IMG/VR virus record: IMGVR_UViG_3300046163_000090
Location: 32,001 to 96,000 of that record
Source: a virus
Reading direction: 5' to 3' (one strand)
DNA: 64,000 nucleotides
Below, piece after piece: positions 1 to 21,700 of the stretch; within the stretch, counting starts at the first letter, position 1, and the number at the start of each line of letters is the position of its first letter. The notes under the pieces were generated by a model, which was not told where the DNA came from, ran no database searches, and was given only the letters and a program-made list of their open reading frames with translations. The translations under genes and the position numbers were made by a program.

Positions 1-1
1 T

Positions 2-3000
2 ACGGCTATAGAAGAAATAAAAGAGAGGGCTGGAGCAAGGCAAGGCGGTTATATAGCTGGCCCAATTGCGACTATGTCAATTCCAACAGTAGGCAGAGTT
101 GTTTACAATAAAAACGAAACAATAAAGCAATTTGATGGAATGTCTCAACCAGCCATAATGCCCCCTGAAAAAAGTAAAGCTGGGAAAGAGTATAAAAACG
201 ACTTTTCTACACATCATGGCTTTGACCCTTATTCTCATAATTCATTTAGTGCAGGGGGATTTATTCCGAATTACTCTTTCTCGACAATGAATCAAAATAG
301 GCTACGCGATAGTAAATCAAGAAATAGGGGCGTCAAAAACCTTAACTTAGAATACTTTTATCCTGCAGCTGGACAAGGTGGTGGCACTATATTTAAAATG
401 TATAAAGATATAGTTCGCTCTGCAGACTCTGGTCAACCTTATACCAATATACTGGCTGGAGAAATTATTGGGCCGAGGATACCAAAAATGATCGTCGAGG
501 GTAAAAAGATGTTAGATAAAGCTAGATTATCTGGCAAAAAAATTCCCAAAATGTCAATTCAAGGAACAATCTTTCCGTCTATGTTGACTCGCAAAATTGA
601 TAAATTTGCTTCTGACAGAAAAGATGGCTATATTCATCCACCTGTTGATTATATCCCTGGAGAAGAATCTGAAGTCAGAAAATACCTTAAGAGCTTAGGT
701 GCTGACCCAGAATCTCATGATACTGTTAAATTACAGAATGTATATAAAGGTGGTTATGATACTGGCTTCATTCCTAGCTTTGCTTTGAAAGCTGGACTTA
801 TTCCTGGGACAAACATTCTAAGATTACCTACAGCTAAGATGATTAATGAAACTACAGCTTCTGATTTCAAGGGTAATAAAATTAAAGGCTGGCAAACTTT
901 AGAGGCTACAGTTGATAATGTGCAAAAGCATGCACAAACATATAGAAATGAATTAAGCGAACTCAAGAAAGTTGGAGTGGATTTGTTGCAAAGAAAAATG
1001 TATTTCTCAAATCAATCTCAACATATACCAGTTAAAGATAGAAAAAAGATAGCTCGCCAACAAAAGAAGATGACGTCCATGAAGGGTTTTGCTGGCCGCA
1101 ACCAACACAAGATTACTGGCAACTCTCAAGAAGACGCTTTATTTAAATCTTCTCTCGAAAATAAAGGTTATTATCCAACTTGGACTGGAGCTTATACGGC
1201 GGAGGGCAGACAAAAAGGTAAAGGCGATGAAAACTTTAAGGTTGACTTCTTTGCTCCTGGTCGTAAGCCAATAGAATCAAAATACGGAAAGTATACTGCC
1301 CCTAATCTTATAGCTAAAAGCATACGCCTTTATAGTGATAGTTATATTGAGGAATTTTTATCTAGATCAGGCAGATCAGATTTATCCGAAAATATGCGAA
1401 AAGGCAAGTTGAAGGACTCGACTAATATGTTAACTTCCTTAGGCTATAAAGATGTTAATGCGGATATGGTGTTAAGAGCAGGGTTGTTCAACGGTTATTT
1501 ACCTGACAGAAAGAACAACGTTAATCAAAACCTGAGAACCGTTAAAGAGTTAGAAGGTCGCGAAACTGTGTCAGGTTATTCAGCTATGAGTTCAAGCGAG
1601 ATGTTTGATGAATTTTCTTCTAATTCTGACAGAAATTTTCCAGGATTAGAAAAAATGTCTAAAGATGGAATATGGAATAATAAAAACAAAAAATCCAGAA
1701 AAAAAGAGAGCTTTTACCACAGGGGAATCGTACCTAATTTTTCCAAAAACTGGGCACAAGGCAAATCAAAATCTTCAGACAAAAATCAAGGCAGAAAAAG
1801 AAGCCCTCAGGCAGAAATAATAAAAGCTATCAGGGCTACTCTTAGCAAAAGGGGTATAAAAAGAAGTGCCATGGCTGAAGATAAAATTTTATTTGCTGCA
1901 GAAAAATATATATCGGCCACAAAAAGCAGAGACTACCCTGGTGGATATGTTAATGTAAATGGAAATAAAATTAATTTAAACGAAATAACTTTAGCTCTAA
2001 AAAAACATGGCGACTACCACCCATCATTTGATGATACAGTAGAATTTGATGGAAGTAAAAACCATAAGGACAATTTAATGTTTGAAGAGTTGGAGCAAAA
2101 ACGACTTCCAAATTTTGCAAGATACGGCATGTCATCTTTGAGAAGCCCTATTATGTTTAAGAATGGAAACGAAGGTAGTTTTGGTAGATCTTATTTAGCA
2201 ACAACTTCAAAGTCGGGTAAATTATTTTTACTAAAAGACGGCCATAAACCTTTCTCTGATTATATGAAAAAGATGGGTAAACCCGAACCTAAATTAAAAG
2301 AAGGTGCAGTCGGGGGAAGAGAAGGTTATTGGGTGAATTCGGGAGCTGACGATGTTAAAACTTGGGCAGAGCTTCCAAATACTAAATTATTAGCTTCTCA
2401 GGAAAAAAGGAGAGCCGAAGCGCAGGCTATAGAAAACGACAGAAAGGCTAGATTAAATCCTGGAGTATTTGATCCAGTTTTATCTAATGGTAAAATTTTC
2501 TTCAGCGATGGTTCTAGCGGTTCTGTTAACCCCGATTCCCTTTCTAAAAAAATGGGCAAAGAATATAAACATGTCGAAGTTGATAAGAGAGCCCTGCATA
2601 ACTATGCAAAAGAAAACAAGATAACTAAAAAAAGCGGCGGCACAGAAAGTACTCATTTAGGTAATGCTTTTAATAAAATCTTAAACCTACCTAGAAGCGA
2701 GTTTCTTAAAATGAAGCATATTGTTCGCCCGAGAATGCAAACTGATGGAGAGAAAGATTTAGAAAGAAAAATGAATGCTCCTAGCAAACCTATTAAATGG
2801 GATGTTAGAGATAACCAAAAAGGTAAAAAACAATATAATTTAAAAGCGGATGATACAACATTCAGACAGTTCTCTACATTCTTGCTAGACCAAGGAGTCC
2901 CCAAGAGAAGTGTAGATAATATACACAAAGCTCTCGCAAATAAACAAGCTCATTTAGATAAAATAGTTAAAGAAGCTAGAGACAAGAGGAGTATGGGCAG

Positions 3001-6000
3001 AGGCAGAGGCGTGTTTTTTGACGCAGCCAAGAAACAAGAAAGCTTTGAAAAAGGTTTTTCTATACCTACTGATGGATTATTTATCAAAAATCTAAATCAA
3101 ATGGTTAGGGATTTTAATAAAACTGTTTATAACTCTGATGGATTTATTCCTAATTTTATGTTTGGAAATGAAGCTCCAGAACAAAGTACCCTGTATCCTA
3201 CGAAAAAAGATTTAAAAATAAAACAATACAATAATGCATTAAAAGACTTCCTGGAGCATCAGGACAATATAAAAAACAAAGCCTGGTCTATGGCAGATTT
3301 TGCAGGCTATATAAATAACGATGAACTATCATACCCTAATCTCGGAGACACTGCCGCTGGACACTCGGTCAATATTCTAAAAGGCAAAAGCCTCATATAT
3401 CATAGTTTAGCGAAATCAAGCAAACCTCTTCTTGAGGAATTTGTTACAGGCTTAGGTAGAAAAACAAACGCTCAATCCATAGGAGCAGCATACGAAAAAT
3501 TAATTGAAGATAATTTTGGGGTTCAGTCACTAGGACACAATGCTCCAATAGATTACAAAAACCTTGGTCAAAAAGTAAACGACTTTAAAGAAGTAAGAGA
3601 TCCTTCTGGAAATGCTATCAATGAGCCTAAATATACTTTACTTAACAGCACAAAACCTAATTCTCCCGTAGAAGCTGCTGGTGGTACGGGACACACAAAA
3701 CAACATATGGGTCGAAAAGGTCCACGTTTTGCAGCTCAAAATCCAACTGGACTAAATGACATAAAAGCGACGATTTTAAGTACTCTTAAAGGTGGACCAA
3801 CCAAAACAAAGGAACCATTAACAATAGGGACTGAACGAATAGTAGAATTAACTCAAAAAGGCCAGAGCGATGAACAGAACTTATCAGGCTATGATCCAAA
3901 GTTTAAGGCCTTTCAAATAATTTCAGAACCTTCAGATACAGCATTCAAGAAAACAAAAAATATTCTTAGATCTATGAAGGGAACAAAGCAAGTGAAAGAT
4001 AAATCTGCAATCAGCAGCAGGGTAAAAGCTCAAAAAGGTAATAATTTTAATATTAACCTTTTTGGTGGGTATGGAAAATCTGCACATCTAGTAGGTTCTC
4101 AAAATATGATAAAGCTAGAACAAGAGATTGAACAAGAAATAAATAAACAATATAAAAATCAAAGTTCAAAAAATAAAGCAAATTTCAGCAAACAAGTAAA
4201 GAATGCTTCTCAAAATACTTTCGAAATAAAATACGATAAAGATATACTGGATCTCGCGACCCATCCAATAACAAAATCACACGGACACATTCCCAACTTT
4301 TCCGCATGGAACCCTCTGACTAAAAATACTCAAAGCATTGCAAAGCAAGGCGGCTTAGCTACTAATAAGTTTGATCTTGCAAAAATAATTCAAAACTCTC
4401 CGTTCAAAGACTTGCTACGCAGACATTACCATTGGAATAACTTTCCCGAAAAACATAAAAAGCGCCTCAACGAATGGCTTAGGTCTCAAGGCTACACAAA
4501 TAGGACACTGCAAGGATGGGGTGTACTTTCGAGAAATAGTGGATCCATAGCGAAAGGAGCTACAGAAATACTAACGTCTTCTGGGCACATTCCAAATTTT
4601 GCAAACCCACTAGGAGATGCTATATCCAGAGAGAAAGAAGCCCTGAGAGAGCGAGGCTCTGCCGCCGACATTTACATAGATCAAGATAATAGACTCAAGA
4701 ATCCAAAGAATCCAGCAGGTTTATTGGTTGCTAATACTCGAGACGAACCTAAGTCTGGCTCGCAAGGCGTTAATCGAGCAATATCGATGGGTATGGATCC
4801 AAAAACTCATGGTGCGAGCAGTGGGGTTGTTCCGAATTTCGCATCAAGCACAAAGGGTAGTAGCAGTAGTAATAAATCCGCTAACGAAATAAAAGACACA
4901 GGCAAGGCAATGAAAGAAGCTGGTGATGCTAGCGGTGACCTTATGATGAAAATGATGGGCCTAACCACTCTTACTTATGCTTTAGATGGAGCCATGGGTG
5001 AAGCTTCAGAAACAGCTTCTGGCTTTCAAAAAGCAATGGGGGTAGTAAATGCTGCCATAATGGGGGCTAGTCAAGCAGCCATGCTTGCAATGGTAGTGCC
5101 TAAAGGTACATCTGCGAAAGGTAGAAGAAAATTGAACGATGGATTCGAAAAGGCTAAAAACGCCTATGGTTCCAAAAATCAAAGTACGGGATCAAGACTC
5201 AAAGCTGGGCTAGGTGGAGCTGGAATGATGGCAAAAGGAGCTGGAGGAATGTTGATGGGTGCGCTTGGACCTCTAGGCATGGCTGCAGCAGCATTAATTC
5301 CAATCTTTTCAGCTCTAAAAGAACAATTTGGTTTATTTAAAAGCAATATAGAAAACATTGGCGATTCACTAAATGCTGCCAGAAAACAACAAGACTTACT
5401 TAACCAAGCTACATCAAGTTTATCTTCCGAGCAACAAAATGCAAAAAGTATTATAGAATTAGAATCCAAAGGTAGAAATCTAAGTTCTGAACAAATGAAT
5501 GAATTGCATAAATTAAGGATTCAAGAAATTCAAAATCAAGGTAAGTTGCAAGGAAGCTTGGAATCGGTTTCAGCTAATTTTGATTTATCAGAAAAACAAC
5601 TTAAACTTTTAAGTGGCTCATATGCTGATCAACAAAAACTATTAAAACAATTAGAATCAGCTCAAGTCAGATACATTGCATCTTTAGAACTAAGAAAAAC
5701 TCGGGCAGAAAACAGAGAAAAACTAGGTGATACAGACGCTGGGCTTGCTGATTTTTTAAATATTTTTCAGCTGGGTGACTTCCAAAAAACTCTTGCATTG
5801 GGTAAAGAATCTGCCGATAATATAGCTAGGGGTGAAGCTGATACTTTTTACGAGACTTATATGTCTGGAAAAATCAATGAAGGTAATGCTCAAGAAGTTA
5901 ATAAGCAAATAAGTGGAATTGTTTCCCTAAATCTTAGTAAATTAAGAGGTGGTGATGCTTTTGATTACGAAGATTTTGCAAGAGACGATGAATTTCAAAG

Positions 6001-9000
6001 TCAATTTTCTAACTTAGCTAAAACCTTAGGTTATGAAAATAATCCAGAAGAAGGTCCAGATTTAAATGAATTTAAACGAAGAATGTCTGAATCAATAGCT
6101 TCCGTAAATGCTCAAAGTTATTACTCTGGAATATTCGGGACTAACTTAAATCCGTTTAACAGTGGACAATTCACACAAGACGAACGAGAAACATCAAAAA
6201 CTTTCAAACAACAACTTCAACGTAGAGTTTCTGGAGCGAAAGAAGATGATGCAGCAAAAATTGCCAAAAAAAGCGAACAAGTAAATTTAATTGACATTGC
6301 CAATGAATCTAATAAAATGGCAAAACAAATATCCTTTGAGCAAGATAGAGCTTTGTCTTTAGCTAAACAACGATTAAAAATTGAGCAGAAAATTTTTGAA
6401 CAAGATCAAGCTAGATTAGGGTTGACTGATGAAATAGAAGATTTTCTTGGAGTGTTAAATGTTGATCAAAAAGTAGATAGGCAGTTTGATCGAAAAGAAA
6501 CAGCTATTGATCAAAAAGCAGAACAAGATATTAAATCCCTAAGAATTGATGCCAGGGCAGAATCTAAAAAATTCCTCGAAGATAAAATAAAAACAGATAG
6601 ACTTAATAATTCAATGTTTGACCCCATGACTGGAATCAATCAAGATAAAGTTGAAAAACTTCTACGAGAGATTGCAGATAATACAGATCCCAATTCAAAA
6701 GCAACATCAAAAGAAGAGATAGACTTTGCTAACAAATTCGAAAGGTCAGCTATAGAAGCAATGAAGGGCAAGGGCATCGATCCTTCGTCGTTTAATAAGG
6801 AGAAAGAATTAACCGAACAATTGAATAAGGCTATTGCGAAACGAAACGAAATAAATGCTAATTATAAAGATGATCAGTATATGAGGAAAAGGATGACTGA
6901 GCAAAACCCCGAAGCAAGTGAGGAAAATATTCAGCAGCTTTTTAATGAAAGGATACAAGCTAGAGCAGACAACCCAATCCTTAACAAAGTAACTCGGGCT
7001 CAAGAAGATTTTACCTCCCGATATACAAAAGGGTTCAATCAGGTTATGGCAGATTTCAGAGAAAGAAAACAAGTTTTGGCAAGGCCAGATGCTATCAGAA
7101 TATATGAACAGTCTAGTGACTACAAGGCTTTAGAGAAAGATATGCAGAACAAAATTCAGTCACTTGTAGAAATGTCAATATCTGGAAGCAATAACCAGAA
7201 TAATGAAGGCAAAGAGCAGACTAAGCGTCTTAGTTTTAGCAACACATTATACAATGAAGCTGAGAGAACGATATCAAGAGCTAATAAATCATTACTCAGT
7301 AAAACAGAGCTCGAGCTACAAAAAAGCCTAAAGATTCAAGAGAGAATAACTAAAGAAGCTCAAAGTCCAGCTCATTTAAATCAGCTTTACTCAGAAAATC
7401 CTAGAGCAAATCCTAAACATATTTCTAGTTTAGAAGAACAAATAAAAGATCTCTCGAAACCTCCTGCGGATACAACCTTGAGTAATAAGCCTGAAGGATA
7501 TAAAATATCGTCAACATATGATATTAAGGAGATGGACGAATACATACTCAAAACAAAAGAAAGATTAAAAAACTTGAACTTTAGTAATGGCAGCACTTTA
7601 TCTGGATCCACAAATCCTGATGCTGCCACTGATAACATTAATTCAATAAAGAACCAGGAAACAGAGGAAGCTATAGCTAGCATTCCGCCCGTTTCACCTA
7701 GTGAAAAAGCTTTAATGAATAATGCAAGCTCGCCAGAACGAATAGATATTCAAGCCAGAGCTAAAGAACAAGATACTGCTGACCGCATAAAGCTAGTAGG
7801 AGCGAATGCTCAAGCAAAAGGAGTTAAGGATGGCACTAGAATAGCCGAAAGTAAGCTAAAAGATAAAGCTAATTCCTTAACTAATAGAGAGCAAACTATA
7901 CTTCCAGATTTATTTCAACAGCAACAAATACAAGGAATTAAGTATGACTCTAGTCCATCAGTTTCCAATCCTGGAGTATTCGGCCAAACAGGTGACATGC
8001 CTTTAGTAAATCCGAACGATCCTATTTATCCAATTAATCAAGCAAGAATGGGTAAAGATTTAGCTCTGCCAGTTTCTACTCCAGATAAAATTGACGGAAA
8101 ATCTACTGAAGCTCGAGCGAAAAGTGAAGCTGAAATTAATAAGATTATGAGTGAAATTTTTATCCAGCTTAGAGATCACAAAAAGATAGCTGGTGGTGTT
8201 GTTGATAAAACTAAAGCTAGAAGTATGATTATTGATGGTCTACTTCAACTTGATGATGATATTGAAAGAGCAAAAGCTATTGAACTTATTAACACTTCAA
8301 ATGTAACAACTTATACTGATCATGAAATTGATTTAATAAAACAAGGATTGAATCAAAAACAAGCTACATTATCTGATCAAGAGCAAGCCGCTCGACAGGA
8401 AAAGAAAGCGAATAAAGATGATCTAGATCTCCAGAAACTCAGTGAATCATTCCGAAATAGAACAAACGCAGGCCTCCAAGAAACTCTCAGAATAAGAGGC
8501 GATATTAATAATTACGAAGAAAGAGTATCAGATGCCGTTCAACATAATCTTGGAGTTCAAAGCGGATTTGCGAAACTTTCATCCGAAATGCTTAATGTGC
8601 AAATAGGGAAACTCAGAAGCATGGAACGGGATGGCTCTCTAGCAAAACATTCCGAGAGTTTAGCAAATGAAGAGCTTGGCAGAGAAGAGAAGCAGCGAAT
8701 ATTGAGCACTGCTATGCTTAAAGCAAAAAATAATTTACTAGATGGCACGGAAAGAGGTGTCCAGATTGCTGGAGATAATTTTGATGCTCAAGAAGAAGAA
8801 CGCAGATTGACCTTAATCGCCGCTCAAAATAAATTAAAACTTTCAAATTTATCTGAAAAACTATACAAGCAGGCAGAAACTGAAAGCTCCATAAAAGTAG
8901 CTCAATTAGCTATTGAGAATAAACTACTAGCTCAAAAAACAAAATTATATGAGACTACAGAAGCTTTAACAAAAGAAGTTGAGGGCGAGTTAGAGCAGCA

Positions 9001-11080
9001 AAGGCGAGCAACTTATAATACAGGATTGCGCAATCAAGAAACTAATAGATTAAACGATCAAATGATTACAAATCCTAATGATCCATATTTTGGGATGACT
9101 GGCTTTCAAGCAAATGCTCAACAAAGAGCCCAAGATTTAAATACTGCCCAGACATCTCAAGTAAAAAATGCCAGAGCAGATTTCCAGCTTTACACAGGAA
9201 GAGGTAATGAATTAAGAGCTTCTGAAACTAGACTCCAGCTTTTGCAATTTCAAAAACAACAAAATATAGAAAACGGAAAAGGGAGAATGTTTTCTGATAC
9301 TATAGCAGTTAGAATCGCTGAAGTTAATGTTGAACTTGATCGATTTAATGAAACCTTAGCTAATACAGCATTTGATAGTGTAAAGCAAGGGTTCAGGGAT
9401 ATGATGGACACTATGGCCTCTGGCACAGCTGAAATGAGCGATGTATTCGGAGCTTTCTTGGGTTCAATCGTTTCAGCTATAAGTGATAAGTTAATAGATA
9501 GAGCCACAGCTCAAATTACCTCAGGTCTTTTTGATATAATTGGCATTGGAGAGCACAATAAAGGTGGGATAGTAGGATATAATCGTGGAGGTTATGCTAT
9601 GGGGGGTAAGTCGTCTCAGACTCCAGCAATGTTAACTGCTGGAGAATATGTTGTAAGAAAGAAAGTTGTAGATAGATTAGGCTCTGGAACTTTAGATAAA
9701 ATGAATAAAACTGGCTCATTAGATTCTTTATACCAAGAGCCTAGCACTAATAATTTTGATATCTCTACATCAAGTGGTGCTCCAGGTATGGCTTTCATGA
9801 ATGAAGGAGGATGGCTTAGTAGGCAATGGGATACAGCTAAGTCAACTTTCTCTCCCTTTACATCTTCCTCAAGTGATTCCAGTTGGGGTAGAGTTGCTAA
9901 AGGTAGCGGTATGCTTTTAGGCTCGTCCTATGGTGCCTATGAAGAGGCTCAGAAAAATGCTGCAGATAATGCTCCAGAAGCTCCACAAGCCCCTTCAACA
10001 GCAGTATTAAATACGACTTCAGATTTAAGTTTAGATCCATCTAGCAGCTCAATGTCTCCTTCGATGCGACAAGGTGGCAATAGTTATGCCCAACAATACG
10101 GAGATTATTTATTGAAAAAGTATGATTATGATGTTCAACAAAATAATCAAGCTGTTGAGGCAAAAGCTGGATTCTGGCAAGGCATGGCAAACCAATTCGG
10201 AGTTGCCCTCGGAGGTGCAGCAGTAGGTAAATTTACATCTTCCCTTGGAGCCGCCTGGGATACTAGGTGGGGAAGCGAAGCAACTGTAGAAAGATGGAAT
10301 AAACAAGGTATTCACAGTGCCGCAGATTTAGCTGAAAAAAAACCCAATAGTTTCGGTTACTACAAAAATGCGATGAATGACTACAGGGATAGAATGGGTT
10401 TTGATTCAATGTCAACCGATGATATAACCTCGGGCAAACCTGTTACTGGAGCCGACATGCTTAGGGCGAGCAATTCATCTCCATCTTGTTCAGGCGGAGT
10501 ATGCTCGACTTCTGATAATCTTGGTATGACAAAAAATAATGACTATAGGAGCACTTTTCACTCACCAGAGCAAATTGCTTTTTCTGATGCTTTATACGGT
10601 AGGGCAAACCTGGCTCCTGGCTTAGATATGAAAAACAGTAATTTTTTAAATAATGGCTATTTGAAGAAAAATAATGGTGGTATTATCGATTCTCCCATTC
10701 AGGGTTACAGCTCTGGCGGAAAAGTTTATGGTCCAGGAGGCATAGATAAAGTTGGCCCAGTTATGCTTGATAAAGGAGAATATGTGGTAAGAGCATCAAG
10801 CGTTAACAGTATCGAAAAACAATTTCCAGGATTTTTTGATCAACTTAATGCAATGAGGTTTAATCAAGGCGGTTCAGTCGGAGGCACTCAATCTAAGTCA
10901 GAGTCCTCCTCTCAGCAATCAGGTAATGTAACTGTTAATATCAATGTTGCCTCTGATGGTAGTTCTTCGAGCTCCTCAAGCGGTGGTGGTTCAGAACAGC
11001 AAATGGCTTCCAAGATTAAAGATGCTGTTGTTGGTATTATTGCTCAAGAAAAGAGGGTTGGAGGAATGCTGAGTGGCTAA
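2..11080 (+). CDS. Giant tape measure protein with N-terminal cargo-like domains (5' truncated by window edge)
   Basis: The frame is open from nt 2 (TAIEEIKERAGARQGGYIAGPIAT-M), so the true start is probably upstream of the window. It has Ala/Gly-rich hydrophobic segments (~4920-5340) and long Q/E/K coiled-coil stretches. C-terminal xxxGG motifs, PAMLTAGEYVV/PVMLDKGEYVV and the terminal VNINV...QEKRVGGMLSG are typical of lambda-H-like TMP ends. It lies directly upstream of the tail-tip genes. Confidence 0.88.
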   Translation, partial: TAIEEIKERAGARQGGYIAGPIATMSIPTVGRVVYNKNETIKQFDGMSQPAIMPPEKSKAGKEYKNDFSTHHGFDPYSHNSFSAGGFIPNYSFSTMNQNRLRDSKSRNRGVKNLNLEYFYPAAGQGGGTIFKMYKDIVRSADSGQPYTNILAGEIIGPRIPKMIVEGKKMLDKARLSGKKIPKMSIQGTIFPSMLTRKIDKFASDRKDGYIHPPVDYIPGEESEVRKYLKSLGADPESHDTVKLQNVYKGGYDTGFIPSFALKAGLIPGTNILRLPTAKMINETTASDFKGNKIKGWQTLEATVDNVQKHAQTYRNELSELKKVGVDLLQRKMYFSNQSQHIPVKDRKKIARQQKKMTSMKGFAGRNQHKITGNSQEDALFKSSLENKGYYPTWTGAYTAEGRQKGKGDENFKVDFFAPGRKPIESKYGKYTAPNLIAKSIRLYSDSYIEEFLSRSGRSDLSENMRKGKLKDSTNMLTSLGYKDVNADMVLRAGLFNGYLPDRKNNVNQNLRTVKELEGRETVSGYSAMSSSEMFDEFSSNSDRNFPGLEKMSKDGIWNNKNKKSRKKESFYHRGIVPNFSKNWAQGKSKSSDKNQGRKRSPQAEIIKAIRATLSKRGIKRSAMAEDKILFAAEKYISATKSRDYPGGYVNVNGNKINLNEITLALKKHGDYHPSFDDTVEFDGSKNHKDNLMFEELEQKRLPNFARYGMSSLRSPIMFKNGNEGSFGRSYLATTSKSGKLFLLKDGHKPFSDYMKKMGKPEPKLKEGAVGGREGYWVNSGADDVKTWAELPNTKLLASQEKRRAEAQAIENDRKARLNPGVFDPVLSNGKIFFSDGSSGSVNPDSLSKKMGKEYKHVEVDKRALHNYAKENKITKKSGGTESTHLGNAFNKILNLPRSEFLKMKHIVRPRMQTDGEKDLERKMNAPSKPIKWDVRDNQKGKKQYNLKADDTTFRQFSTFLLDQGVPKRSVDNIHKALANKQAHLDKIVKEARDKRSMGRGRGVFFDAAKKQESFEKGFSIPTDGLFIKNLNQMVRDFNKTVYNSDGFIPNFMFGNEAPEQSTLYPTKKDLKIKQYNNALKDFLEHQDNIKNKAWSMADFAGYINNDELSYPNLGDTAAGHSVNILKGKSLIYHSLAKSSKPLLEEFVTGLGRKTNAQSIGAAYEKLIEDNFGVQSLGHNAPIDYKNLGQKVNDFKEVRDPSGNAINEPKYTLLNSTKPNSPVEAAGGTGHTKQHMGRKGPRFAAQNPTGLNDIKATILSTLKGGPTKTKEPLTIGTERIVELTQKGQSDEQNLSGYDPKFKAFQIISEPSDTAFKKTKNILRSMKGTKQVKDKSAISSRVKAQKGNNFNINLFGGYGKSAHLVGSQNMIKLEQEIEQEINKQYKNQSSKNKANFSKQVKNASQNTFEIKYDKDILDLATHPITKSHGHIPNFSAWNPLTKNTQSIAKQGGLATNKFDLAKIIQNSPFKDLLRRHYHWNNFPEKHKKRLNEWLRSQGYTNRTLQGWGVLSRNSGSIAKGATEILTSSGHIPNFANPLGDAISREKEALRERGSAADIYIDQDNRLKNPKNPAGLLVANTRDEPKSGSQGVNRAISMGMDPKTHGASSGVVPNFASSTKGSSSSNKSANEIKDTGKAMKEAGDASGDLMMKMMGLTTLTYALDGAMGEASETASGFQKAMGVVNAAIMGASQAAMLAMVVPKGTSAKGRRKLNDGFEKAKNAYGSKNQSTGSRLKAGLGGAGMMAKGAGGMLMGALGPLGMAAAALIPIFSALKEQFGLFKSNIENIGDSLNAARKQQDLLNQATSSLSSEQQNAKSIIELESKGRNLSSEQMNELHKLRIQEIQNQGKLQGSLESVSANFDLSEKQLKLLSGSYADQQKLLKQLESAQVRYIASLELRKTRAENREKLGDTDAGLADFLNIFQLGDFQKTLALGKESADNIARGEADTFYETYMSGKINEGNAQEVNKQISGIVSLNLSKLRGGDAFDYEDFARDDEFQSQFSNLAKTLGYENNPEEGPDLNEFKRRMSESIASVNAQSYYSGIFGTNLNPFNSGQFTQDERETSKTFKQQLQRRVSGAKEDDAAKIAKKSEQVNLIDIANESNKMAKQISFEQDRALSLAKQRLKIEQKIFEQDQARLGLTDEIEDFLGVLNVDQKVDRQFDRKETAIDQKAEQDIKSLRIDARAESKKFLEDKIKTDRLNNSMFDPMTGINQDKVEKLLREIADNTDPNSKATSKEEIDFANKFERSAIEAMKGKGIDPSSFNKEKELTEQLNKAIAKRNEINANYKDDQYMRKRMTEQNPEASEENIQQLFNERIQARADNPILNKVTRAQEDFTSRYTKGFNQVMADFRERKQVLARPDAIRIYEQSSDYKALEKDMQNKIQSLVEMSISGSNNQNNEGKEQTKRLSFSNTLYNEAERTISRANKSLLSKTELELQKSLKIQERITKEAQSPAHLNQLYSENPRANPKHISSLEEQIKDLSKPPADTTLSNKPEGYKISSTYDIKEMDEYILKTKERLKNLNFSNGSTLSGSTNPDAATDNINSIKNQETEEAIASIPPVSPSEKALMNNASSPERIDIQARAKEQDTADRIKLVGANAQAKGVKDGTRIAESKLKDKANSLTNREQTILPDLFQQQQIQGIKYDSSPSVSNPGVFGQTGDMPLVNPNDPIYPINQARMGKDLALPVSTPDKIDGKSTEARAKSEAEINKIMSEIFIQLRDHKKIAGGVVDKTKARSMIIDGLLQLDDDIERAKAIELINTSNVTTYTDHEIDLIKQGLNQKQATLSDQEQAARQEKKANKDDLDLQKLSESFRNRTNAGLQETLRIRGDINNYEERVSDAVQHNLGVQSGFAKLSSEMLNVQIGKLRSMERDGSLAKHSESLANEELGREEKQRILSTAMLKAKNNLLDGTERGVQIAGDNFDAQEEERRLTLIAAQNKLKLSNLSEKLYKQAETESSIKVAQLAIENKLLAQKTKLYETTEALTKEVEGELEQQRRATYNTGLRNQETNRLNDQMITNPNDPYFGMTGFQANAQQRAQDLNTAQTSQVKNARADFQLYTGRGNELRASETRLQLLQFQKQQNIENGKGRMFSDTIAVRIAEVNVELDRFNETLANTAFDSVKQGFRDMMDTMASGTAEMSDVFGAFLGSIVSAISDKLIDRATAQITSGLFDIIGIGEHNKGGIVGYNRGGYAMGGKSSQTPAMLTAGEYVVRKKVVDRLGSGTLDKMNKTGSLDSLYQEPSTNNFDISTSSGAPGMAFMNEGGWLSRQWDTAKSTFSPFTSSSSDSSWGRVAKGSGMLLGSSYGAYEEAQKNAADNAPEAPQAPSTAVLNTTSDLSLDPSSSSMSPSMRQGGNSYAQQYGDYLLKKYDYDVQQNNQAVEAKAGFWQGMANQFGVALGGAAVGKFTSSLGAAWDTRWGSEATVERWNKQGIHSAADLAEKKPNSFGYYKNAMNDYRDRMGFDSMSTDDITSGKPVTGADMLRASNSSPSCSGGVCSTSDNLGMTKNNDYRSTFHSPEQIAFSDALYGRANLAPGLDMKNSNFLNNGYLKKNNGGIIDSPIQGYSSGGKVYGPGGIDKVGPVMLDKGEYVVRASSVNSIEKQFPGFFDQLNAMRFNQGGSVGGTQSKSESSSQQSGNVTVNINVASDGSSSSSSSGGGSEQQMASKIKDAVVGIIAQEKRVGGMLSG

Positions 11081-11876
11081 CAAAAATTCAGTTTCAAATT
11101 ACGAACAACAATTTTACTTGTCAGGAATTCTGCTGTCTGGAGTCACATCTATTAATGGCAGTTATTCAATTGAAGAATCTCCAATTAATATCATTGGGCA
11201 TGGTTATACCTACCCTGTTGCTCAAGGACCAATGGTTGGAAATTTTTCTTTACAGAAATATTTTATTGGTGAAGATCCAATATTAAACTATACTGGCGAT
11301 AGCCCTATTAGCGGAAGTGTTAATTATGGGGATAAAAGTTTTGGATTTGAAGAAGGTTATTTAACTGAATATTCATTTAGTGCGGGCATAGGCTCGATAC
11401 CTCAATCGAGTGCTAGTATAGTTGTTTATGGCGACATTGGCGAAGGTATTGATGCCTCAGGTTCTAACCCTCATCCAGAAATACAAATAGCTAATCAAGG
11501 CTCAATTTCATTAAATGCAAATGGATATCAAACAAACAGAATCACTAATTTTGAATATAGTTTAAGAATTAACAGAACTCCTTTATATAAAATAGGCTCA
11601 CCATTTCCAGTGCAAGTTGATACATCATTTCCAATCATGGAAGAAGTTAATGTTGTATTTGATGTCTCTGATTATGAAATTAGAAAAATGAACGATAATC
11701 TAATTAGACCGAATCAACAAGATGTAGAAATTTCTGTAAAAAATCCATTAAACAATAATAATATAGAAACATTTGAAATTAAAAAAGCTAGATTATTAAA
11801 TCATAATATAAGTTCTTCAAGCGAGGATATAATGTCTGTTAGCTTGAGGTATATGGGATATAGAAATAAAAGATGA
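11073..11876 (+). CDS. Putative tail/baseplate hub-like structural protein
   Basis: GTG start overlaps the TMP end. Beta-rich, resembles the next ORF (YLTEYSFSAG vs YLKSFSFSIA), and sits in the tail operon. Confidence 0.55.
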   Translation: MANKNSVSNYEQQFYLSGILLSGVTSINGSYSIEESPINIIGHGYTYPVAQGPMVGNFSLQKYFIGEDPILNYTGDSPISGSVNYGDKSFGFEEGYLTEYSFSAGIGSIPQSSASIVVYGDIGEGIDASGSNPHPEIQIANQGSISLNANGYQTNRITNFEYSLRINRTPLYKIGSPFPVQVDTSFPIMEEVNVVFDVSDYEIRKMNDNLIRPNQQDVEISVKNPLNNNNIETFEIKKARLLNHNISSSSEDIMSVSLRYMGYRNKR

Positions 11877-13039
11877 AATTCCTACCATATGAAGACGTAC
11901 CCCTTTATCTTGCCGTCAATGGTCAAGATGGTGAATATATTTTTGCAGAACAAGCTACAATTTCAGTGAATCAAGGTGTTGACGGATGCAGGCAGATTGA
12001 TGATAACTTAATACAAATATGTGAATACGGGTTTGGTTCTTCAATGAATTATTCATCGACGACTTTTCAAACTAACAATCATAAATTTTGTACACTAGGC
12101 CCGCCAAAAGGTCCGCCTAGACCCTTAGCTACATCAATTTTCAAAATACCAAAAGACACTAAAATCACTTTCCCTAACGGCAAAAATTTATACTTTAGTG
12201 ATGATATATATCCTGATGGAAAAGACTATGTAGTTCGATTACATTCTAAAGATGGAAATGTTTCATTGACTGAAGATGAGGCTCAAAACGGTTACTTTGA
12301 GCCTATATATAATTACGCATCACAAGGCCCAGTAGCTGGTAGCATGCAAGTTAATTTCTATACGGATAAAGGTAATTTGCAAAACTTTTTTAATATTACT
12401 GGAGCTTCAAATCCACTACTGTACCCACCCGTTGACGAAGAGAGAATTACGGGTCATCTTGGCGAATTTGCATTTGATCATGCGTACTTAAAGAGTTTTT
12501 CATTTTCTATTGCGCCAAATTCTATTATTCAAGCTTCTGCATCTTTTGATGTCTTTGGAACATTAGAAAAGAATAGTGAGTTAATTAACAACTATCATTC
12601 ATCTAGTGAGTACAGTCAATCTTCGATACCTCACGGAAAGCATAGTGAAATTGTTGGTCACAGTGCCCTAGGAGTTAATCATCCAGTTAGCTTTACTTAC
12701 CAAATATCTGTTGAAAGGCTAGCCAACTATACTGCTCCGACTGGATCTGAAACTAATGTAGGTTTAGTTCCTAATAGAAACTCAAAGAGCTCCACTACTG
12801 TTAGCATGTCACTAGGTGGAGATAACCTAGATCCAGATATCTTATCAGACGGCTTTAATGGCAAAAGGGCGAATCTCAATGTTATTCTAAGCGATTTAGA
12901 TTATGAAAATTTTGAAGATAATTCTGAAGGTGAATTGAATACTTTTAGCTGTAACGGAGTTATAACCTCTCAAAACCTTTCTGTTTCGTCTCAAGGACAT
13001 CTTAATGGATCTATTTCAGTAGTGCAAAATATATCATAA
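11873..13039 (+). CDS. Putative tail/baseplate structural protein (paralogue of the preceding gene, with an insertion)
   Basis: ATGA overlap, shared motifs with 11073-11876, tail operon context. Confidence 0.55.
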   Translation: MKFLPYEDVPLYLAVNGQDGEYIFAEQATISVNQGVDGCRQIDDNLIQICEYGFGSSMNYSSTTFQTNNHKFCTLGPPKGPPRPLATSIFKIPKDTKITFPNGKNLYFSDDIYPDGKDYVVRLHSKDGNVSLTEDEAQNGYFEPIYNYASQGPVAGSMQVNFYTDKGNLQNFFNITGASNPLLYPPVDEERITGHLGEFAFDHAYLKSFSFSIAPNSIIQASASFDVFGTLEKNSELINNYHSSSEYSQSSIPHGKHSEIVGHSALGVNHPVSFTYQISVERLANYTAPTGSETNVGLVPNRNSKSSTTVSMSLGGDNLDPDILSDGFNGKRANLNVILSDLDYENFEDNSEGELNTFSCNGVITSQNLSVSSQGHLNGSISVVQNIS

Positions 13040-15791: not shown

Positions 15792-18700
15792 AGACGTTTT
15801 TATTTAAAGGGGATATGGCTCAGAAATTTGGCTCAAGTGTCAGCTTGGACGTTCAAACTATGAGAGAGGCTTTAGTTGCATTTTTCTATACTCAAAAAGG
15901 TTTCAAGAAATATTATTTAGATAAAATGTCATCTGGAGTCACCTATGTATTTATTGACTCCAAGGACAATGTACTTGAAAACTTTTGCTCAGATTTAGTT
16001 CTTCAAGATGATGTATACGAGATTGTGCCTAATTTTGAGGCTTCGGGTGGACTTTTAGGTATGGCTGGCAATTTTGGCATGAATGCTTTACTGGGTTATG
16101 GGCTGCAGAAGTTGATAGGAGATTTGACTCCAGTAGAAAGTACTGGCGAGGAGTATGAAATTATAACTACAAATTCTTTCATATATACTTCTAACGAAAA
16201 TAGAGCAGAGCAAGGATTGCCAATTCCAGTTATTTATGGTCAACTTAGAGTAGGTAGTTTAGTTATTAATTCTAACATACAAAACTACGATTTTGATCAT
16301 GAAAGTTTAACTATTTACAGAGGAGCACAGGAAGTTTCCAGTTTGCCTAATATCGGTCAATTTAACTTCAATGAAAAAGCCTACGAGTTTTCTACTTCTA
16401 AAAATTTAAGGGGTACGCCTACTCATGGTAATTTATATCAAAGTGACGATAGTGATTCTTTTCCTAGAGCCAAAGGTCGTTACGATGGAGATCCAACTAA
16501 AAAACCTCCTCATGTATACAATAATAAGGATGGATCAAAACTGCCCAGCGCAGATCACGGAAATCAATCATTTAATAATGACTACGCTCATGAGCCTAAT
16601 CAAGGTGGACACAGAGAAACCTATGGGCCTTCCCTAAAAACTCCTAGATACCTCGAAGATACAAAATCTGCAAGTAAATTTGACGGAGGTACTACTGCCA
16701 AACCTTATCTATTCCCCCCCGAAGGAGCTCCAGAACTCGATGGTACATTTAGACCAAACGATTCTTCAGATGTTTGCATATCTATTAAAGGTAGAACTCC
16801 TTTATCTTCTCAAGAGCAACATTATGTTCTGGGCTATAAAACTAGAACTAAACCTATGACAGTAGGTAAAAGAGGAAATTACCAAAAGTTAGAATCCATA
16901 GGAGTCTTTAGATCTGTAGATGTTTTATCAGAAGGTCCTATAGCAGGTTTTGCTGTACCCGAAACTGGCCGATCATCTTACAATAATTTAGGTTACTTTG
17001 AAAACGATAATGGCTCAATATCTTTAGGGTACCAATCTTCTAGCGAAGCCGTCTTTATTAATAATACCGCTCAAGCTGGCAGTGTTACATTTGACGATGG
17101 TCTGCCAAATAATTTAAGTCATTTCATAGATACAACTAAATTTAGATCAAATGGAACAAGAACTAATGCCTTAACTTTAGAAAACGCAGGCTCTGGTTAT
17201 GCCCCAAATTTAGATGTAAATATTGTCGCCGATGGTACACAGCAAAACGGAATTTCTATTTTAATAGATCGTCCATCTACATCGGAATCGGCTGAATTTG
17301 GTGATTCAGAACTTGCGGATGAACCAATAATTGCTCCTGATGGAGAAACTTATTTTATATCAAGCAACAACCTTTACAACTTAAAATCAAATCTCGCGAG
17401 AGGCAGTCAGGGAGAATTTAATTTAAATTTTCTTGAAGTTAATAATTATCAAAACCCCTTATCTTCTTTTATTATTGAAGAAACCATAGATCATCCTGAC
17501 ACTGGCAATCCTCTTACCGCAAAAGGCTTCAATCTTTCCAGTATGTCTGAGTCAGATTTAGATGGCACTTTCGTAAGTACGGGAGGAGGTTATAGCAACA
17601 GGGAAGATAAAGAGATCATCATTGATCCTCCTAATAGCCCAGTTATTTTTCAGCCAAAGTTAGACAAAAACCTACCTTTTGATCGCAGAGCAAATGCTCT
17701 TGTTTTTGACATGGGCACTCTGTCTAATTTAAATGACATACAAAATAAAATTGATTTTGATGATGAATTTCAAGAATCATATCTAAATGTAGATACATCA
17801 CAAAAAGGACCCTGGAGCCAATTCATAAGACCTTATGCGGATCTCAGAAAATCATTTGGTTTTAGGCCTCAATCCTACACAGTAAATGATGGTATCGTAG
17901 AATACACGGAAACTCCAAAAGAATCTTATGAAAATTGTGTTGCTAGTGATAAACATGAAGAAGTTATAGGTTATTATGGAGTAAAGGCAGGCGAGGTATT
18001 TAAAGCAGGTAAGTTTCCATGGGATGATTTAATCGATAACGGAGATAAAATAGAGTATTATGCAATAACTTTAAGGGTAACTATAGACCAGTATCTTTTC
18101 CTAAAACCTGCAACTATAAAAGTTGTACATGTAGCTACCGCCAATGAAGGTAATAATGGTGGAGTACCTACATGGGGAGCTTCGGCTGTTCAGTCTTGGG
18201 CTCGATCAGGAACATTTTATAAAGATGATGTAAACCCTCTTGAAGAAGAGTCTGGCCAAGACATAGAGCAAGATTTTGACGACGATGGCTCAAAAGATAC
18301 AAAACGATACTATCGCTCAAAATATGACTATTTTATTAGAGCATCTTCAGCTTTACCAGCTGGGAGCTATAATCATAATATACATCTTTGTTCGCATATA
18401 CATGAATTCGCTCTTAAAAATGGCTACTTCACGGGTTCTCAAAGTAATGCAAACGATTGGAATGGAGTGGAAGTAGCAGTTCCATTGGGAATACTCTTAC
18501 AAGTTCCAGACTTAAGTCAGTCAATATTTAATGCATTTCATGCGAAAAAAAGCTCAGCATTTAAACCTATAACTTTACCAACTGGAAAAGATTCCAAAGG
18601 TATATCCAGAACATCTAGGTATTTTAAAATTACTCCTGCCGCAGGATCAACACAACCTAATACAAGTCCAACTTATTTCACATCGATATCCAATCCTAAC

Positions 18701-21700
18701 CTTTATTCACAAACAGTAATCGGAAATAATCTAATAACCCATAACCTTTGCCGAATTTTAGATAAAGGAGTTATTCCAGATCAAACTGGCCCAGAAGCTC
18801 ATAGAAAGGGTTATTATATACCAGATTTAGTTTACAGGATTGAAGTTTTTGTTATTAGGAAATTAAAAGTTGGTAATACTGAAAACTTTTTATACAAGAC
18901 TCTGTTGACTAACATTGATGCCTTTGCCGCAATTAGTTCTTATGGTACGGTAAGAGGGCTTTTTGTTAAAAATGTTCCAGACAATTGCGTATACGATTCA
19001 ATTAGTGAGAACTTTACCCCTTTACTATTCGGAGGAAACACTCAGCAACCAGGATTAAATCCTTTTCCAAGTTTAAGTTTTTCTGATAATGCTTATGTTG
19101 ATTGTGGTTTCTTTTTTAAAATTGATTCCAGCCAAAACTTTAAAAAACTAACAGTCGATATTGTTAATGGTGCTGTTGCTGAATTTAACTCTAAAACTTC
19201 CAGCGCTATAGGCTTTACTGATTGGACTAATTATGTATCTAACTCCCCATTTGCATTTCCTCAAGATACTCCTGGCTTGTCGTGTCATGGTGTAGCTCCG
19301 ACTCATACAACTTCACTCGGCGAGGCTTATAGAATAATAAATATTGACTCTTACGCTGAAACAACCGTAAGTCGAACATTAAGAAATGGCGGAAATTACG
19401 GCAAAATTAAAGTTCATTTAGAGACTATTTCTGGGCAAAATCCATTTAGCGCCAATAAATTCCAACAATCTCGATTCTGTACGGGCAGAGTTAAAAAAAT
19501 AACTCGATATAGTTCGGGTAACGGTTACTTAGGTTTAGATGGAAATACAGCAAGCGGTGAAACTGTATCGATTAATGTATTTAATGATTCTGTAGGGCTG
19601 AGGTTAGTTACAATTATAAATTTATTAAATAAAAATGTGGGCTACAAACCAAATTCGGATATTATTATCTATTTTGGTATATCTTCAAATAATGTTTTAA
19701 AGATTCCCAGCTCAGTCTTACACCCTAGCTTTACTCAGTATGGAGACGCAGATGGACAATTTAATTACTGGAATAGGTTATTCCCTGGAAAACTAAAACT
19801 GCGAACAGATGAAAATGGCAAAGTTTCCTTTGAGGGCACAAAAGTGATTGATCCAGGTTATACTTACACAAGTGATGTGACACCAGGTAATGCAAAAATG
19901 ATTATACCTAGTTTTTTATTTGCCTCCCAAACTCCTGCTGGCACTCAAATAAATTCCGCATTTTTTCTTGAATCAATAGCTTATTTCTCAAGTCAGGGAG
20001 CCGCGTCAACAATTCTGCCTACCAATCTAGATTTGTCAAATTATGCAAGCGATGTCGATGGAACCTCACCTTATCGCAATGATTATCTTCTTTTTAGTTC
20101 TCAACAACAAAACCACAAACAAAATGCTTTAGATCCAGAAGATCATTTTCCTAAAAGTAGCCTAAGATTAATCGTGCCTAAAGAAAATATTGTTGGAGGA
20201 AAGATTCAAAAATTATTTCAAGTATCTCCTGGACAAGGATTTAATAAAGATTTTATCGGAGTTGATCCATTTGAAGACACGTCTCAAATAAATTTCCCGA
20301 CCTTCAATGTAAAAACTGATAGCTTAGGCCGCTTTACTCAAATGTCAGTAGTTCATTCAGAAAATATAGACGGGTATTCACTCGATGACACAGATTTAAC
20401 TCCTTTAATATCTAGCCCTCCATCTTCAGAGATTGATCTCGAAACTCCAATTTCAGATGACCCTCATAACTGGGCTCGCTCTATTTACCTAAACTCAACA
20501 CCGATTAGGGATAAATTCGGTTTCTTTAATTTTTCAAAATTTGAGTTTGACTTTATGGGTGGATATACAAAAAATGGAGCCGACTCAAAGTTTTCAAATG
20601 TTTTTGACAAAAGTCAAATATCAGCAAGTGCCAAGAAAAATATCATGGAAAAAGAGTTTAGGCTGCCTGCTCAAACTCACTTTATAAATTACCCATTATA
20701 CGGCCCCCGCAACGACGGCGAGAAAGATTATTACTATACTCATACAGTAAAAAATCCAGAAGTTTCTGCAATATCTTTAAGCTTTAAAATCAATGAGCTA
20801 CATTATATTTATGAAGGGGACGAATCAATTGTTTATTTAAACCTAAGGCCTTTAGTTGGTGGCATTATTGGTTATATTGCTATGCAACAACTTTTTCGAA
20901 AGATCATTTCAATAGCTATACCAGATCCTCAAATAGCAGCCACTAGTACAGCTGTTCAGGTTATCCCTTGTACTGGTACTGGAGGAGGTAGTGGAGCTAG
21001 TGTTGGAGCAAACCCTCCTTCCTTATCTGGCATTGCAGACGTAGTAGCCATAGAGGCTCTCAAGGAGTTAGCCGCCAGTGCAATAGGTATTCTAGGTGCA
21101 GTTCTTGGTGTTGCACTTGCTAAAGAATTTCCCTGCAGTAAATCTAGTGGCGGCTTTCTCTGTATTAAAATGGGAGAAATAATTAAAAATAGTGGAGAAA
21201 TATGGCCAGCTAAAATGTTCTTCAAGATAGAATATGGCATTGAGGGTGAGAGGTTTTACGATTACGAGCTTGTGATTCAAGGATGTGCTACAAACCCATA
21301 TATAAAAGATATTTATATACCTGGGTTCTCACAATTAGTTCCAGATCAAGATCATGCTAAATTTAAAAAGAATAGAATTATAAAAATATCAAGAATGACA
21401 AGAGCTATGGACCCTGTAGCAAATGGTATATCTGATGCTCGATTTAAAATGCAAGCAGAACTTCAATCTATTACTGAGTACGTTGCTGGGTTTTTTAGCT
21501 ATCCAAATACAGCTATGGTAGCAACAAGAATAAACTCAAAAGATATGCCTCAAGCACCAAGGCGTGAATACTTTGTCAAGGGTAAGATGGTTAAAGTTCC
21601 TAATGGGTATGCCCCAACTAATGGAAGTTTTTCTCAGGCTATTAATTCTCAATCTGAAACATTCTTTGGTGAAGAAGTTAAGTGGACTAGTAATCCAGCA

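Follow-up and report, generated by a model that had tools for sequence, protein, structure and literature searches.

Positions 2-4860 of the viral DNA analysed here most probably encode a cassette array inside a giant tape-measure protein (TMP) of the TP901 type, lodged between its N-terminal TMP domain and a long C-terminal ruler part. The stretch under study, called the window below, comprises 64,000 nucleotides: bases 32001-96000 of virus record IMGVR_UViG_3300046163_000090, which has 117,477 bases. There is good reason to think that the array is made of about nine separately evolving modules, joined by short flexible linkers that are centred on a conserved junction peptide. TMPs are commonly seen as rulers that also form channels. 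The feature described here is real, non-random and family-wide; its interpretation as a series of junctions between swappable modules is well supported by sequence comparison. The tail would thus probably bring proteins into the host, in a set that can vary from phage to phage.

Internal position of the array in a giant TMP

The gene corresponds to an open reading frame (ORF) on the plus strand, at 2..11080, which is open at the left edge because the window cuts off its 5' part. Its start lies at genome position 30322 (window -1678), 1,679 nt upstream of the window, and the product has 4,252 aa (P0003). PF10145 (PhageMin_Tail) matches aa 123-314 with 84.2 bits, against a gathering cut-off of 33.2. 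The first 562 aa, encoded mostly upstream of the window, form the N-terminal domain, which is also matched by 14 PHROG tape-measure families; the TMP family phrog_24 matches within the C-terminal 126 aa. The gene stands between genes at the tail-chaperone position and tail-tip genes. On its 3' side come two unassigned genes, then gpM-like (PF05939), gpL-like (PF05100) and gpK-like (NlpC/P60) genes; the gpJ position is taken by an ORF of 2,347 aa. From PF10145, the PHROG matches and this M/L/K/J-like gene order, we identify the ORF as the TMP of a lambda-style tail module.

An initial annotation, made from the letters of the window, had described the region as the N-terminal part of the TMP. 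It is in fact internal, spanning aa 563-2173, and the true N-terminal 562 aa are those that carry PF10145. The nine motif sites listed in that annotation hold up as true junctions, by translation and homology: seven are canonical, with the pattern G-x-[IV]-P-[NS]-[FY], and two are decayed. Its description of the intervening segments is likewise borne out. They are mutually dissimilar, as no BLASTP comparison between the eleven motif-stripped pieces falls below an E value of 0.26; they measure 77-381 aa, where 80-380 aa had been claimed; and they are lysine-rich, with 11.6% Lys as opposed to 7.9% downstream.

Six copies of the strict peptide, G.[IV]PN[FY], occur in the 4,252-aa protein, whereas 20,000 shuffles of it gave a mean of 0.005 and a maximum of 1. 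The C-terminal 2,079 aa contain no copy. A looser pattern, applied to all ORFs of the genome of at least 80 aa, found eight matches; seven are in the TMP and the other is a poor one (GGVPTW). The peptide is thus confined to the TMP within the 117-kb genome.

Both decayed sites are recognized by their position in relatives. GYLPD is aligned with G.[IV]PNF in all 15 other sequences of the module that precedes it (module 5), with G254 and P257 invariant. The RLPNF site is where three relatives (L018, L020 and P0016) begin module 18b, just after a canonical motif.

Exchange of modules between relatives

With aa 540-2200 as the query, 38 other giant TMPs of 2,369-6,389 aa were retrieved, and each of the 39 proteins has 4-19 copies of the peptide. 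Further loci, of marine and freshwater origin, came from scans of virus contigs (5 loci), metagenome contigs (80) and genome contigs (4); after 17 near-duplicates were dropped, the set comprised 106 TMPs. Cutting them at the peptide gave 823 segments, which fall into 195 clusters, 128 of them singletons.

These proteins share a common plan. The N-domain is followed by a small unit (84-91 aa) and then by between one and twelve variable modules, after which come another small unit, of about 77 aa, and the long ruler part. In distant relatives the ruler part has additional peptide pairs, both internally and towards its end, where the peptide delimits long helical segments and a last piece at the C-terminus, of 94-99 or 159-323 aa.

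The families of modules recur among relatives in differing order, number and combination. Two TMPs (P0004 and P0005) differ from the window protein by one extra module of 164 aa, inserted exactly at the GFIPNF of nt 3140. The initial annotation had proposed the motif as a possible recombination junction and an alignment of related TMPs as the way to check it; the alignment agrees with that proposal, as the relatives are not collinear, modules are swapped at the motif, homology stops at the peptide and DNA identity steps at the peptide codons. BLASTP comparisons among the TMPs gave 34,721 internal ends of high-scoring segment pairs, which are not independent of one another; a peptide is no more than 5 aa away for 65.7% of them, compared with 9.0% of random positions. 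The median distance from such a non-independent end to the peptide is 2 aa, compared with 48 aa at random.

The breakpoints were traced at the DNA level in one pair of sequences, the window and metagenome contig L009. DNA identity between it and the window is about 55-70% up to nt 4289, 99.4% at 4290-4614 (two mismatches), about 91% at 4615-4840, and collapses from 4841, with little or none beyond. The three steps fall in or at the peptides of 4283-4300, 4583-4600 and 4823-4840. Where residues are identical, the codon is identical too at 88/89 positions of unit 10, at 55/71 of unit 0 and at 191/410 of the N-domain. The identity steps together with the codon identity indicate that single cassettes moved recently between lineages, with breakpoints in the peptide codons. 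For unit 10, the sequence comparison amounts to a very recent transfer of one 100-aa unit between the window lineage and that of L009.

The near-identical block of 325 nt, window 4290-4614, corresponds to about 7268-7590 of L009, with two differing bases; the rest of the L009 TMP is about 70% identical. Tandem duplicates of cassettes also occur, each copy fenced by the peptide: unit 6 together with module 25 is present twice, and module 12 three times (L073; L083/L084).

Conservation of the junction peptide

The consensus over 347 copies is [AS]-x-G-[FLYH]-[IV]-P-N-[FY]-[AS]. Strict copies number 666 in the 106 non-redundant giant TMPs, from marine and freshwater metagenomes. When the other positions are given, each position is conserved at 92-99%: Gly in 666/719, Ile or Val in 666/691, Pro in 666/695, Asn in 666/723 and Phe or Tyr in 666/673. 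Ser stands in place of Asn in 37 of 723 copies (5%), one of which is the GFIPSF of the window TMP.

The codons of the peptide differ between copies within the window gene, from which we infer that it is selected as a protein element and not as a DNA recombination site as such. A repeat or recombination site at the DNA level was rejected as the main cause of conservation on the same ground. As nearly the same 18 bases underlie every copy, and as joins survive only in frame and at a tolerated linker, the peptide would act as a universal splice point.

Other short signals were considered for the peptide. An N-glycosylation sequon, suggested by glycosyltransferases in the window, was rejected, as the residue two positions after Asn is Ala in 176/347 copies and Ser in 70/347. 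Sortase and prepilin-peptidase signals and the beta-signal of outer-membrane proteins were dropped because their patterns do not fit: there is no TG, no following hydrophobic helix, and Pro occupies the strand position. Literature searches, in which supplementary files were outside the scope, returned no description of the peptide.

Modules of the array

The modules and junctions are listed in Table 1. Five motif-bounded pieces, covering aa 652-2093, have a net charge of +10 to +34 each and +91 in total; unit 0 has +1 and the C-terminal 2,079 aa have -14. Cysteine is practically absent (0.0%) from the variable modules of the 106 TMPs. In aa 561-4252 we found no Pfam domain, and PHROGs gave rows only at chance level in the cassette region.

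Table 1. Features of the TMP gene and the two genes upstream of it (window positions, unless marked as genome positions).
Feature	Position	Strand	Basis or remark
Chaperone-position gene 1	genome 28405-29286		293 aa; acidic VEKEVDVEKE-type repeat at start
Chaperone-position gene 2	genome 29288-30292		334 aa; starts one base after the stop of gene 1, +1 frame
Decayed junction peptide GHIPTA	-10..7 (window part 1..7); aa 557-562	+	aligns with the canonical motif of 37 relatives
Unit 2, ~84-91 aa, contains VVYNKNE	8..256	+	64 members in 64 TMPs
Junction peptide GFIPNY	257..274	+	translation
Module 4, 169 aa with motif	275..763	+	27 members in 21 TMPs, sometimes two per protein
Junction peptide GFIPSF	764..781	+	translation
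Module 5, alpha/beta domain with PD-(D/E)XK-like signature	782..1492	+	alignment of 16, AlphaFold
Decayed junction peptide GYLPDR	1493..1510	+	module-5 alignment
77-aa segment with motif (nt 1511-1741), basic, Ser-rich, no family	1511..1723	+	translation
Junction peptide GIVPNF	1724..1741	+	translation
Module 18a, ~120 aa	1742..2098	+	only in the four closest relatives of cluster 18
Decayed junction peptide KRLPNF	2099..2116 (RLPNF from 2102)	+	relatives L018, L020, P0016
Module 18b, ~346 aa	2117..3139	+	segment clustering
Junction peptide GFIPNF	3140..3157	+	site of the extra 164-aa module of P0004 and P0005
Module 23, 381 aa with motif	3158..4282	+	6 members
Junction peptide GHIPNF	4283..4300	+	left identity step with L009 inside; last dense mismatch nt 4289
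Unit 10, 100 aa with motif	4301..4582	+	99.3% DNA identity to contig L009
Junction peptide GHIPNF	4583..4600	+	second identity step with L009
Unit 0, ~77 aa, contains LLVANTRDEP; most widespread small unit	4601..4822	+	118 members in 95/106 TMPs
Junction peptide GVVPNF	4823..4840	+	third identity step with L009; dense mismatches from nt 4841
C-terminal ruler part, 2,079 aa	4841..11080	+	composition, phrog_24

Module 4 keeps 23 invariant positions at 34-45% identity, among them G.PY, G..GPR.P and L...R, and I85 is nearly invariant. No Pfam family matches any of the 12 members searched. LPD38, a domain of polyvalent proteins, appeared as a lead for module 4 in the ESM Atlas at 0.89, under the 0.9 line of the tool, and was not confirmed. 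The same search was empty for module 23.

Unit 0 is predicted by AlphaFold to be a small alpha/beta unit, with a mean predicted local distance difference test (pLDDT) of 71.7, 80-87 in the core and 48-60 at the peptides, both of which are modelled as short strands of low confidence. Foldseek returned nothing for it at E <= 0.001; VIA-align scores against known folds do not exceed Z 3.1, and a sequence profile search of the PDB gave one chance row at E = 1. Two strings that the initial annotation had picked out, VYNKNE and VANTRDEP, are the aligned cores of units 2 and 0. The alignment of the two units by hhalign has a probability of 97.3%, which stems in part from the shared peptides; it suggests that the units are distantly related.

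The C-terminal 2,079 aa (4841..11080) begin with hydrophobic stretches rich in Gly, Ala and Met, continue with a long Q/E/A-rich part low in Pro, and end in a Gly-rich part with GEYVV motifs. Hydrophobic stretches occur at aa 424-452, before the array, and at aa 2240-2260 and 2307-2333, right after it. It is possible from the sequence that candidate membrane segments, at aa 424-452 and 2240-2333, bracket the cassette array.

A nuclease-like module

The AlphaFold model of module 5 has a pLDDT of 84.6 and a predicted template modelling score of 0.82, with a core above 90. Residues 1-17 and 252-265, which bear the peptides, are below 50, and the peptide lies 2-6 residues from the domain on either side. 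In the one confidently modelled module, the peptide is thus predicted to be outside the folded domain. On this ground we rejected a possibility that the initial annotation had named as a refutation of its proposal, in which the motif is a structural beta-repeat within a single domain.

Seven residues, E133, D171, E181, K183, K195, S196 and D202, are invariant in 16/16 module-5 sequences, which are 22-68% identical to the window copy. They include the conserved E...D...(D/E)-x-K constellation of the PD-(D/E)XK superfamily, encoded in the window at 1130-1132 (E), 1244-1246 (D) and 1274-1282 (E-x-K). In the predicted structure, E133 is part of helix 124-141, followed by strands 153-155 and 158-160; D171 stands just before strand 172-173; E-x-K is in strand 180-183, then comes helix 189-197. 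As modelled, the residues follow the order of the canonical alpha-beta-beta-beta-alpha core of PD-(D/E)XK enzymes.

Structural comparison by VIA-align gave restriction-endonuclease folds in 9 of 25 rows, at Z 2.2-2.8, all far below the trust line of the tool: Bse634I (2.8), FAN1 (2.7), Cfr10I (2.6), CdiA-CT (2.4), PspGI (2.4), Cas4 (2.3), SgrAI (2.3), 3ijm (2.2) and SduA (2.2). We therefore call module 5 nuclease-like and do not class it as a member of PD-(D/E)XK. The structure prediction that the initial annotation had suggested for each segment was run on module 5 and unit 0; it yielded for module 5 a folded domain with an enzyme-like signature, and no significant match to a known fold.

Cargo or spacers

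With the peptide as a splice point, the TMP, which occupies the tail tube and exits before the DNA does, could accept new modules. Those that are basic would probably pass through the acidic lumen of the tube unfolded or extended, then fold once ejected and take effect early in infection; on this view, module 5 would be either a nuclease of PD-(D/E)XK type or a DNA-binding domain. It is plausible that the modules are such cargo, one of them nuclease-like.

Alternatively, the modules may be nothing but tolerated inserts that add length or fill the tube, and the peptide the one linker that the tail tolerates. We consider this explanation unlikely. It would account for the fact that the number of copies scales with protein length (Spearman 0.83 over 80 complete TMPs), that free-standing homologues of the modules were not found and that Pfam and PHROGs give no function for any module. 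Mere spacers would not be expected to keep basic charge or particular residues, and module 5 retains a catalytic-type constellation and a confident compact fold at 22-68% identity, just as module 4 retains its invariant positions.

Returning to an array of swappable modules that may be delivered to the host, several observations weigh against it. The ends of the BLASTP segment pairs are not independent, so their figures describe a pattern and not a probability, and the test of DNA identity steps concerns one sequence pair. Three of the ten junctions in the window TMP are decayed; a single peptide is therefore dispensable. The modelled segments are two of about ten, module 5 and unit 0. For module 5, STING domains outrank the nucleases in VIA-align, at Z 3.0-3.5, and no row reaches Z 4; Foldseek found nothing, and neither did Pfam in the 16 members. 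Folded domains of 170-380 aa, present in 3-6 chains, are too big for a lumen of 3-4 nm, and it follows that the modules are stored unfolded or that the region provides only length or spacing. Lastly, module 5 is, as judged from its profile matches, private to these TMPs, and since the matches are confined to them, it is no recognisable imported enzyme.

The profile in question, run against 1.84 billion representative sequences, matched 66 proteins, 46 of at least 1,000 aa and 20 shorter. Most of the nine shorter matches that were inspected look like fragments, on tiny contigs or on contigs with several TMP pieces. A comparison of aa 640-2000 with shorter proteins gave no free-standing homologue among 8,000 scored candidates; for this reason the modules are not recognisable as imported effectors.

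On several long contigs (those behind P0082, P0045 and P0041) the TMP is called as many short ORFs, with six pieces on one contig of 91 kb. Contigs of this kind are probably frameshifted long-read assemblies, and their pieces could pass for free-standing modules.

Possible roles of the peptide

Viral polyproteins have conserved protease sites in flexible linkers between domains. A similar arrangement, in which a protease or an autocatalytic reaction cuts at or next to each peptide, during maturation or after ejection, and thereby frees the modules, is one tentative explanation of the sequence pattern, and the one put forward in the initial annotation. The motif is long (6-9 residues), highly conserved, and placed in short exposed linkers at every domain border, irrespective of the adjoining modules, as the sites of viral polyproteins are. 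The final C-terminal pieces in distant relatives, moreover, resemble the pieces cut from lambda gpH and T5 pb2, and both the mode and the site of gpH cleavage are unknown, according to the part of the source drawn on here (PMC12617516), which gives a precedent for an unidentified processing activity.

Other observations count against it. HExxH, G[DT]SG[GAS] and GxSxG are absent from the five neighbouring proteins, HExxH is absent from the TMP as well, and aa 561-4252 of the TMP contain no Pfam peptidase match. As in lambda, the gpK-like protein shows no more than the usual NlpC/P60 domain and a weak match to JAB. The peptide is missing from lambda gpH and is found in no other ORF of the phage. 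No gene split at the peptide was found: one relative is split (1,427 + 2,538 aa, compared with 3,973 aa when intact), and it breaks inside unit 0; the other TMPs in pieces have several pieces per contig, like frameshifted assemblies.

In a more specific form of the same idea, to which we give somewhat less credence and which we regard as rather doubtful, the sequence pattern would mark a cleavage signal triggered at maturation or ejection, and each chain would be cut into about ten pieces that are fired ahead of the DNA. The pieces, including the nuclease-like domain and domains without known relatives, would be traded like cassettes between marine phages. A signal of this kind would also hint at how TMPs such as lambda gpH are cut. 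In one variant, the chain would cut itself at the conserved Asn, with the acidic lumen of the tube as catalyst; the Ser found in place of Asn in 37/723 copies argues against any obligatory self-cleavage of that type.

We give as much weight to an uncleaved assembly peptide as to the general polyprotein explanation. The peptide might dock or clamp the tail chaperones, fit into pockets of the tube lumen, or hold the 3-6 TMP chains in register, and non-helical inserts would then be tolerated in a ruler protein. Its character is suggestive of such a role: it is hydrophobic and aromatic with small flanking residues, recurs many times in the TMP and in no other ORF of the genome, and is exposed when single chains are modelled. 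Candidate partners are encoded by the two conserved genes directly upstream of the TMP, at the tail-chaperone position, which occur in 64-65 of 86 loci; one of the two proteins is very acidic and the modules are basic. The low-confidence strands that the peptides form in the unit-0 model are, in addition, what is expected of an element that pairs with a partner absent from the model. Set against this, helical stretches of 800-2,400 aa are free of the peptide, so that over most of the ruler it can be needed neither for coating by chaperones nor for contact with the tube; and the copies stand 13 to about 500 aa apart, intervals in which the tube period is not apparent.

The genome entry of phage HK97 depends on its TMP and on the periplasmic chaperone FkpA. 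A handle for host chaperones is a further, quite improbable, explanation: a chaperone of the SurA or FkpA type, or a prolyl isomerase, would bind the junction peptides of the unfolded TMP in the periplasm, keep the modules soluble and help their folding or onward movement. The invariant bond between a hydrophobic residue and Pro is of the type that prolyl isomerases use as substrate. In the portion of the source used here, the P1 domain of E. coli SurA binds the phage-display peptide WEYIPNV with a dissociation constant of 1-14 uM, and prefers Ar-X-Ar-X-Pro, where Ar is an aromatic residue (PMC11401910). The Y-I-P-N core of this peptide matches the junction peptide, which has Tyr at its second position in 49/347 copies and Ile at its third in 206/347, then Pro and Asn. 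This is, though, a likeness of four residues to a single selected peptide, for which chance is a likely cause. The first aromatic residue of Ar-X-Ar is missing, since S, G, R or D is found two residues ahead of the second one, and the host is perhaps not a diderm. Some role other than these three takes up the remaining, smaller share of the probability.

Neighbouring genes

The two chaperone-position genes (window -3595..-1708) are far larger than usual tail chaperones and could be assigned to no family. A gene of 388 aa after the TMP (window 11873-13039) belongs to a family of about 389 aa, another member of which lies at about genome 20001-21271. This family occurs in 65/86 loci, with 80 members upstream of the TMP and 53 downstream, and has no Pfam or PHROG match; it may represent a pair of paralogues, the tube protein and the distal-tail protein. 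The virus record also contains two huge ORFs on the minus strand, at genome 318-16313 (5,331 aa) and 16310-21271 (1,653 aa), that is, window -31682..-10729.

Occurrence and host

The stretch, or part of it, was found in 20 public runs from 17 studies, three of the runs being possible sources of it; all are of seawater or marine origin except one labelled freshwater. In the four runs inspected, contigs are mostly at least 99% identical to it and show no gain or loss of modules; their lengths are 150-970 nt among those listed. Low word shares in the runs therefore reflect thin coverage and not variants of the modules. The only joint, carried by one contig, skips 91 nt, from 4838 to 4930, at a depth of 3.6, and loose ends occur at 4590 and 4840. 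Joint and loose ends come from relatives that share unit 0, and give weak support at best.

The four genome contigs were rejected as a guide to the host. They belong to three metagenome-assembled genomes from three phyla (Halobacteriovorax, Neomarinimicrobiota and Flavobacteriales), which is contradictory, and are probably binned phage contigs. In a tblastn search of 50,697 GenBank phage records, the cassette region had no match; only the N-domain matches, in TMPs of Bacillus and Lactococcus phages, at about 26% identity.

Relation to known systems

The TMPs collected here, at least 106 of them non-redundant and from an uncultured family of marine and freshwater siphoviruses, point to a general plug-in architecture of the TMP. 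Should the modules be delivered, they would make up a large pool of phage proteins for the first strike, evolving fast and hardly characterised at all, and the architecture would lend itself to loading phage tails with proteins of choice. Should the peptide be a cleavage site, it would provide a defined sequence from which to approach the long-standing question of TMP processing, as in lambda gpH. An assembly clamp would explain how non-helical inserts are tolerated in a ruler protein.

The closest sequence relatives among known phages are the TMPs of the TP901-1 family (PF10145), as in Bacillus phages Staley and Slash and in SPbeta (YomI). They have a homologous N-domain, with 26-27% identity over 53-68% of a 593-aa query, and the same place in the tail module; they differ in the cassette region, for which the 50,697 phage records hold no match.

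The likeness to viral polyproteins is that each border between domains has a flexible linker with a short conserved peptide. Unlike in polyproteins, the order of the modules is not fixed in these TMPs, and the protease and the cleavage are known only for the polyproteins.

TMPs sit in the tail tube and are ejected first, and those of lambda (gpH, processed to gpH* and gpHC) and T5 (pb2) are cleaved, as stated in the part of PMC12617516 referred to above. In both, proteolysis separates a part of the TMP from the ruler once the tail is assembled, and some TMPs contain enzymes, such as wall-degrading domains (PMC12617516). The difference is that a single cleavage near the C-terminus is described there, and not a repeated site; gpH is without the peptide.

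Polyvalent proteins are huge multi-domain proteins associated with virions or transfer, thought to be active in the invaded cell, and some are released by autoproteolysis, according to the portion of Iyer et al. 2017 (PMC5512222) drawn on here. They resemble the window TMP in that many unrelated domains, rearranged between relatives, are contained in one giant protein (PMC5512222). The word "tape" occurs 0 times in that article, and the same portion of it describes no conserved delimiting peptide. Searches by Pfam found none of the polyvalent domain families of Iyer et al. in the window protein, in 12 module-4 members or in 16 module-5 members. The window TMP may nevertheless work like a polyvalent protein.

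The only proven case of TMP cargo that we found, in a source consulted in part, is the polymerase fusion of Thermus phage P23-45. Its gp96 is a TMP of 5,002 aa, the N-terminal part of which is a working virion RNA polymerase (PMC10770324). It lacks the junction peptide entirely, even PN[FY] being absent, and the consulted part of that source describes no array of shuffled modules delimited by a motif. The window TMP, for its part, lacks the metal-binding DxDxD of such virion RNA polymerases (there is no D.D.D in its 4,252 aa) and HExxH. What the two have in common is the giant TMP of a long-tailed siphovirus; that of P23-45 carries in the virion an enzyme used at the start of infection (PMC10770324), and so shows that a TMP can carry cargo.

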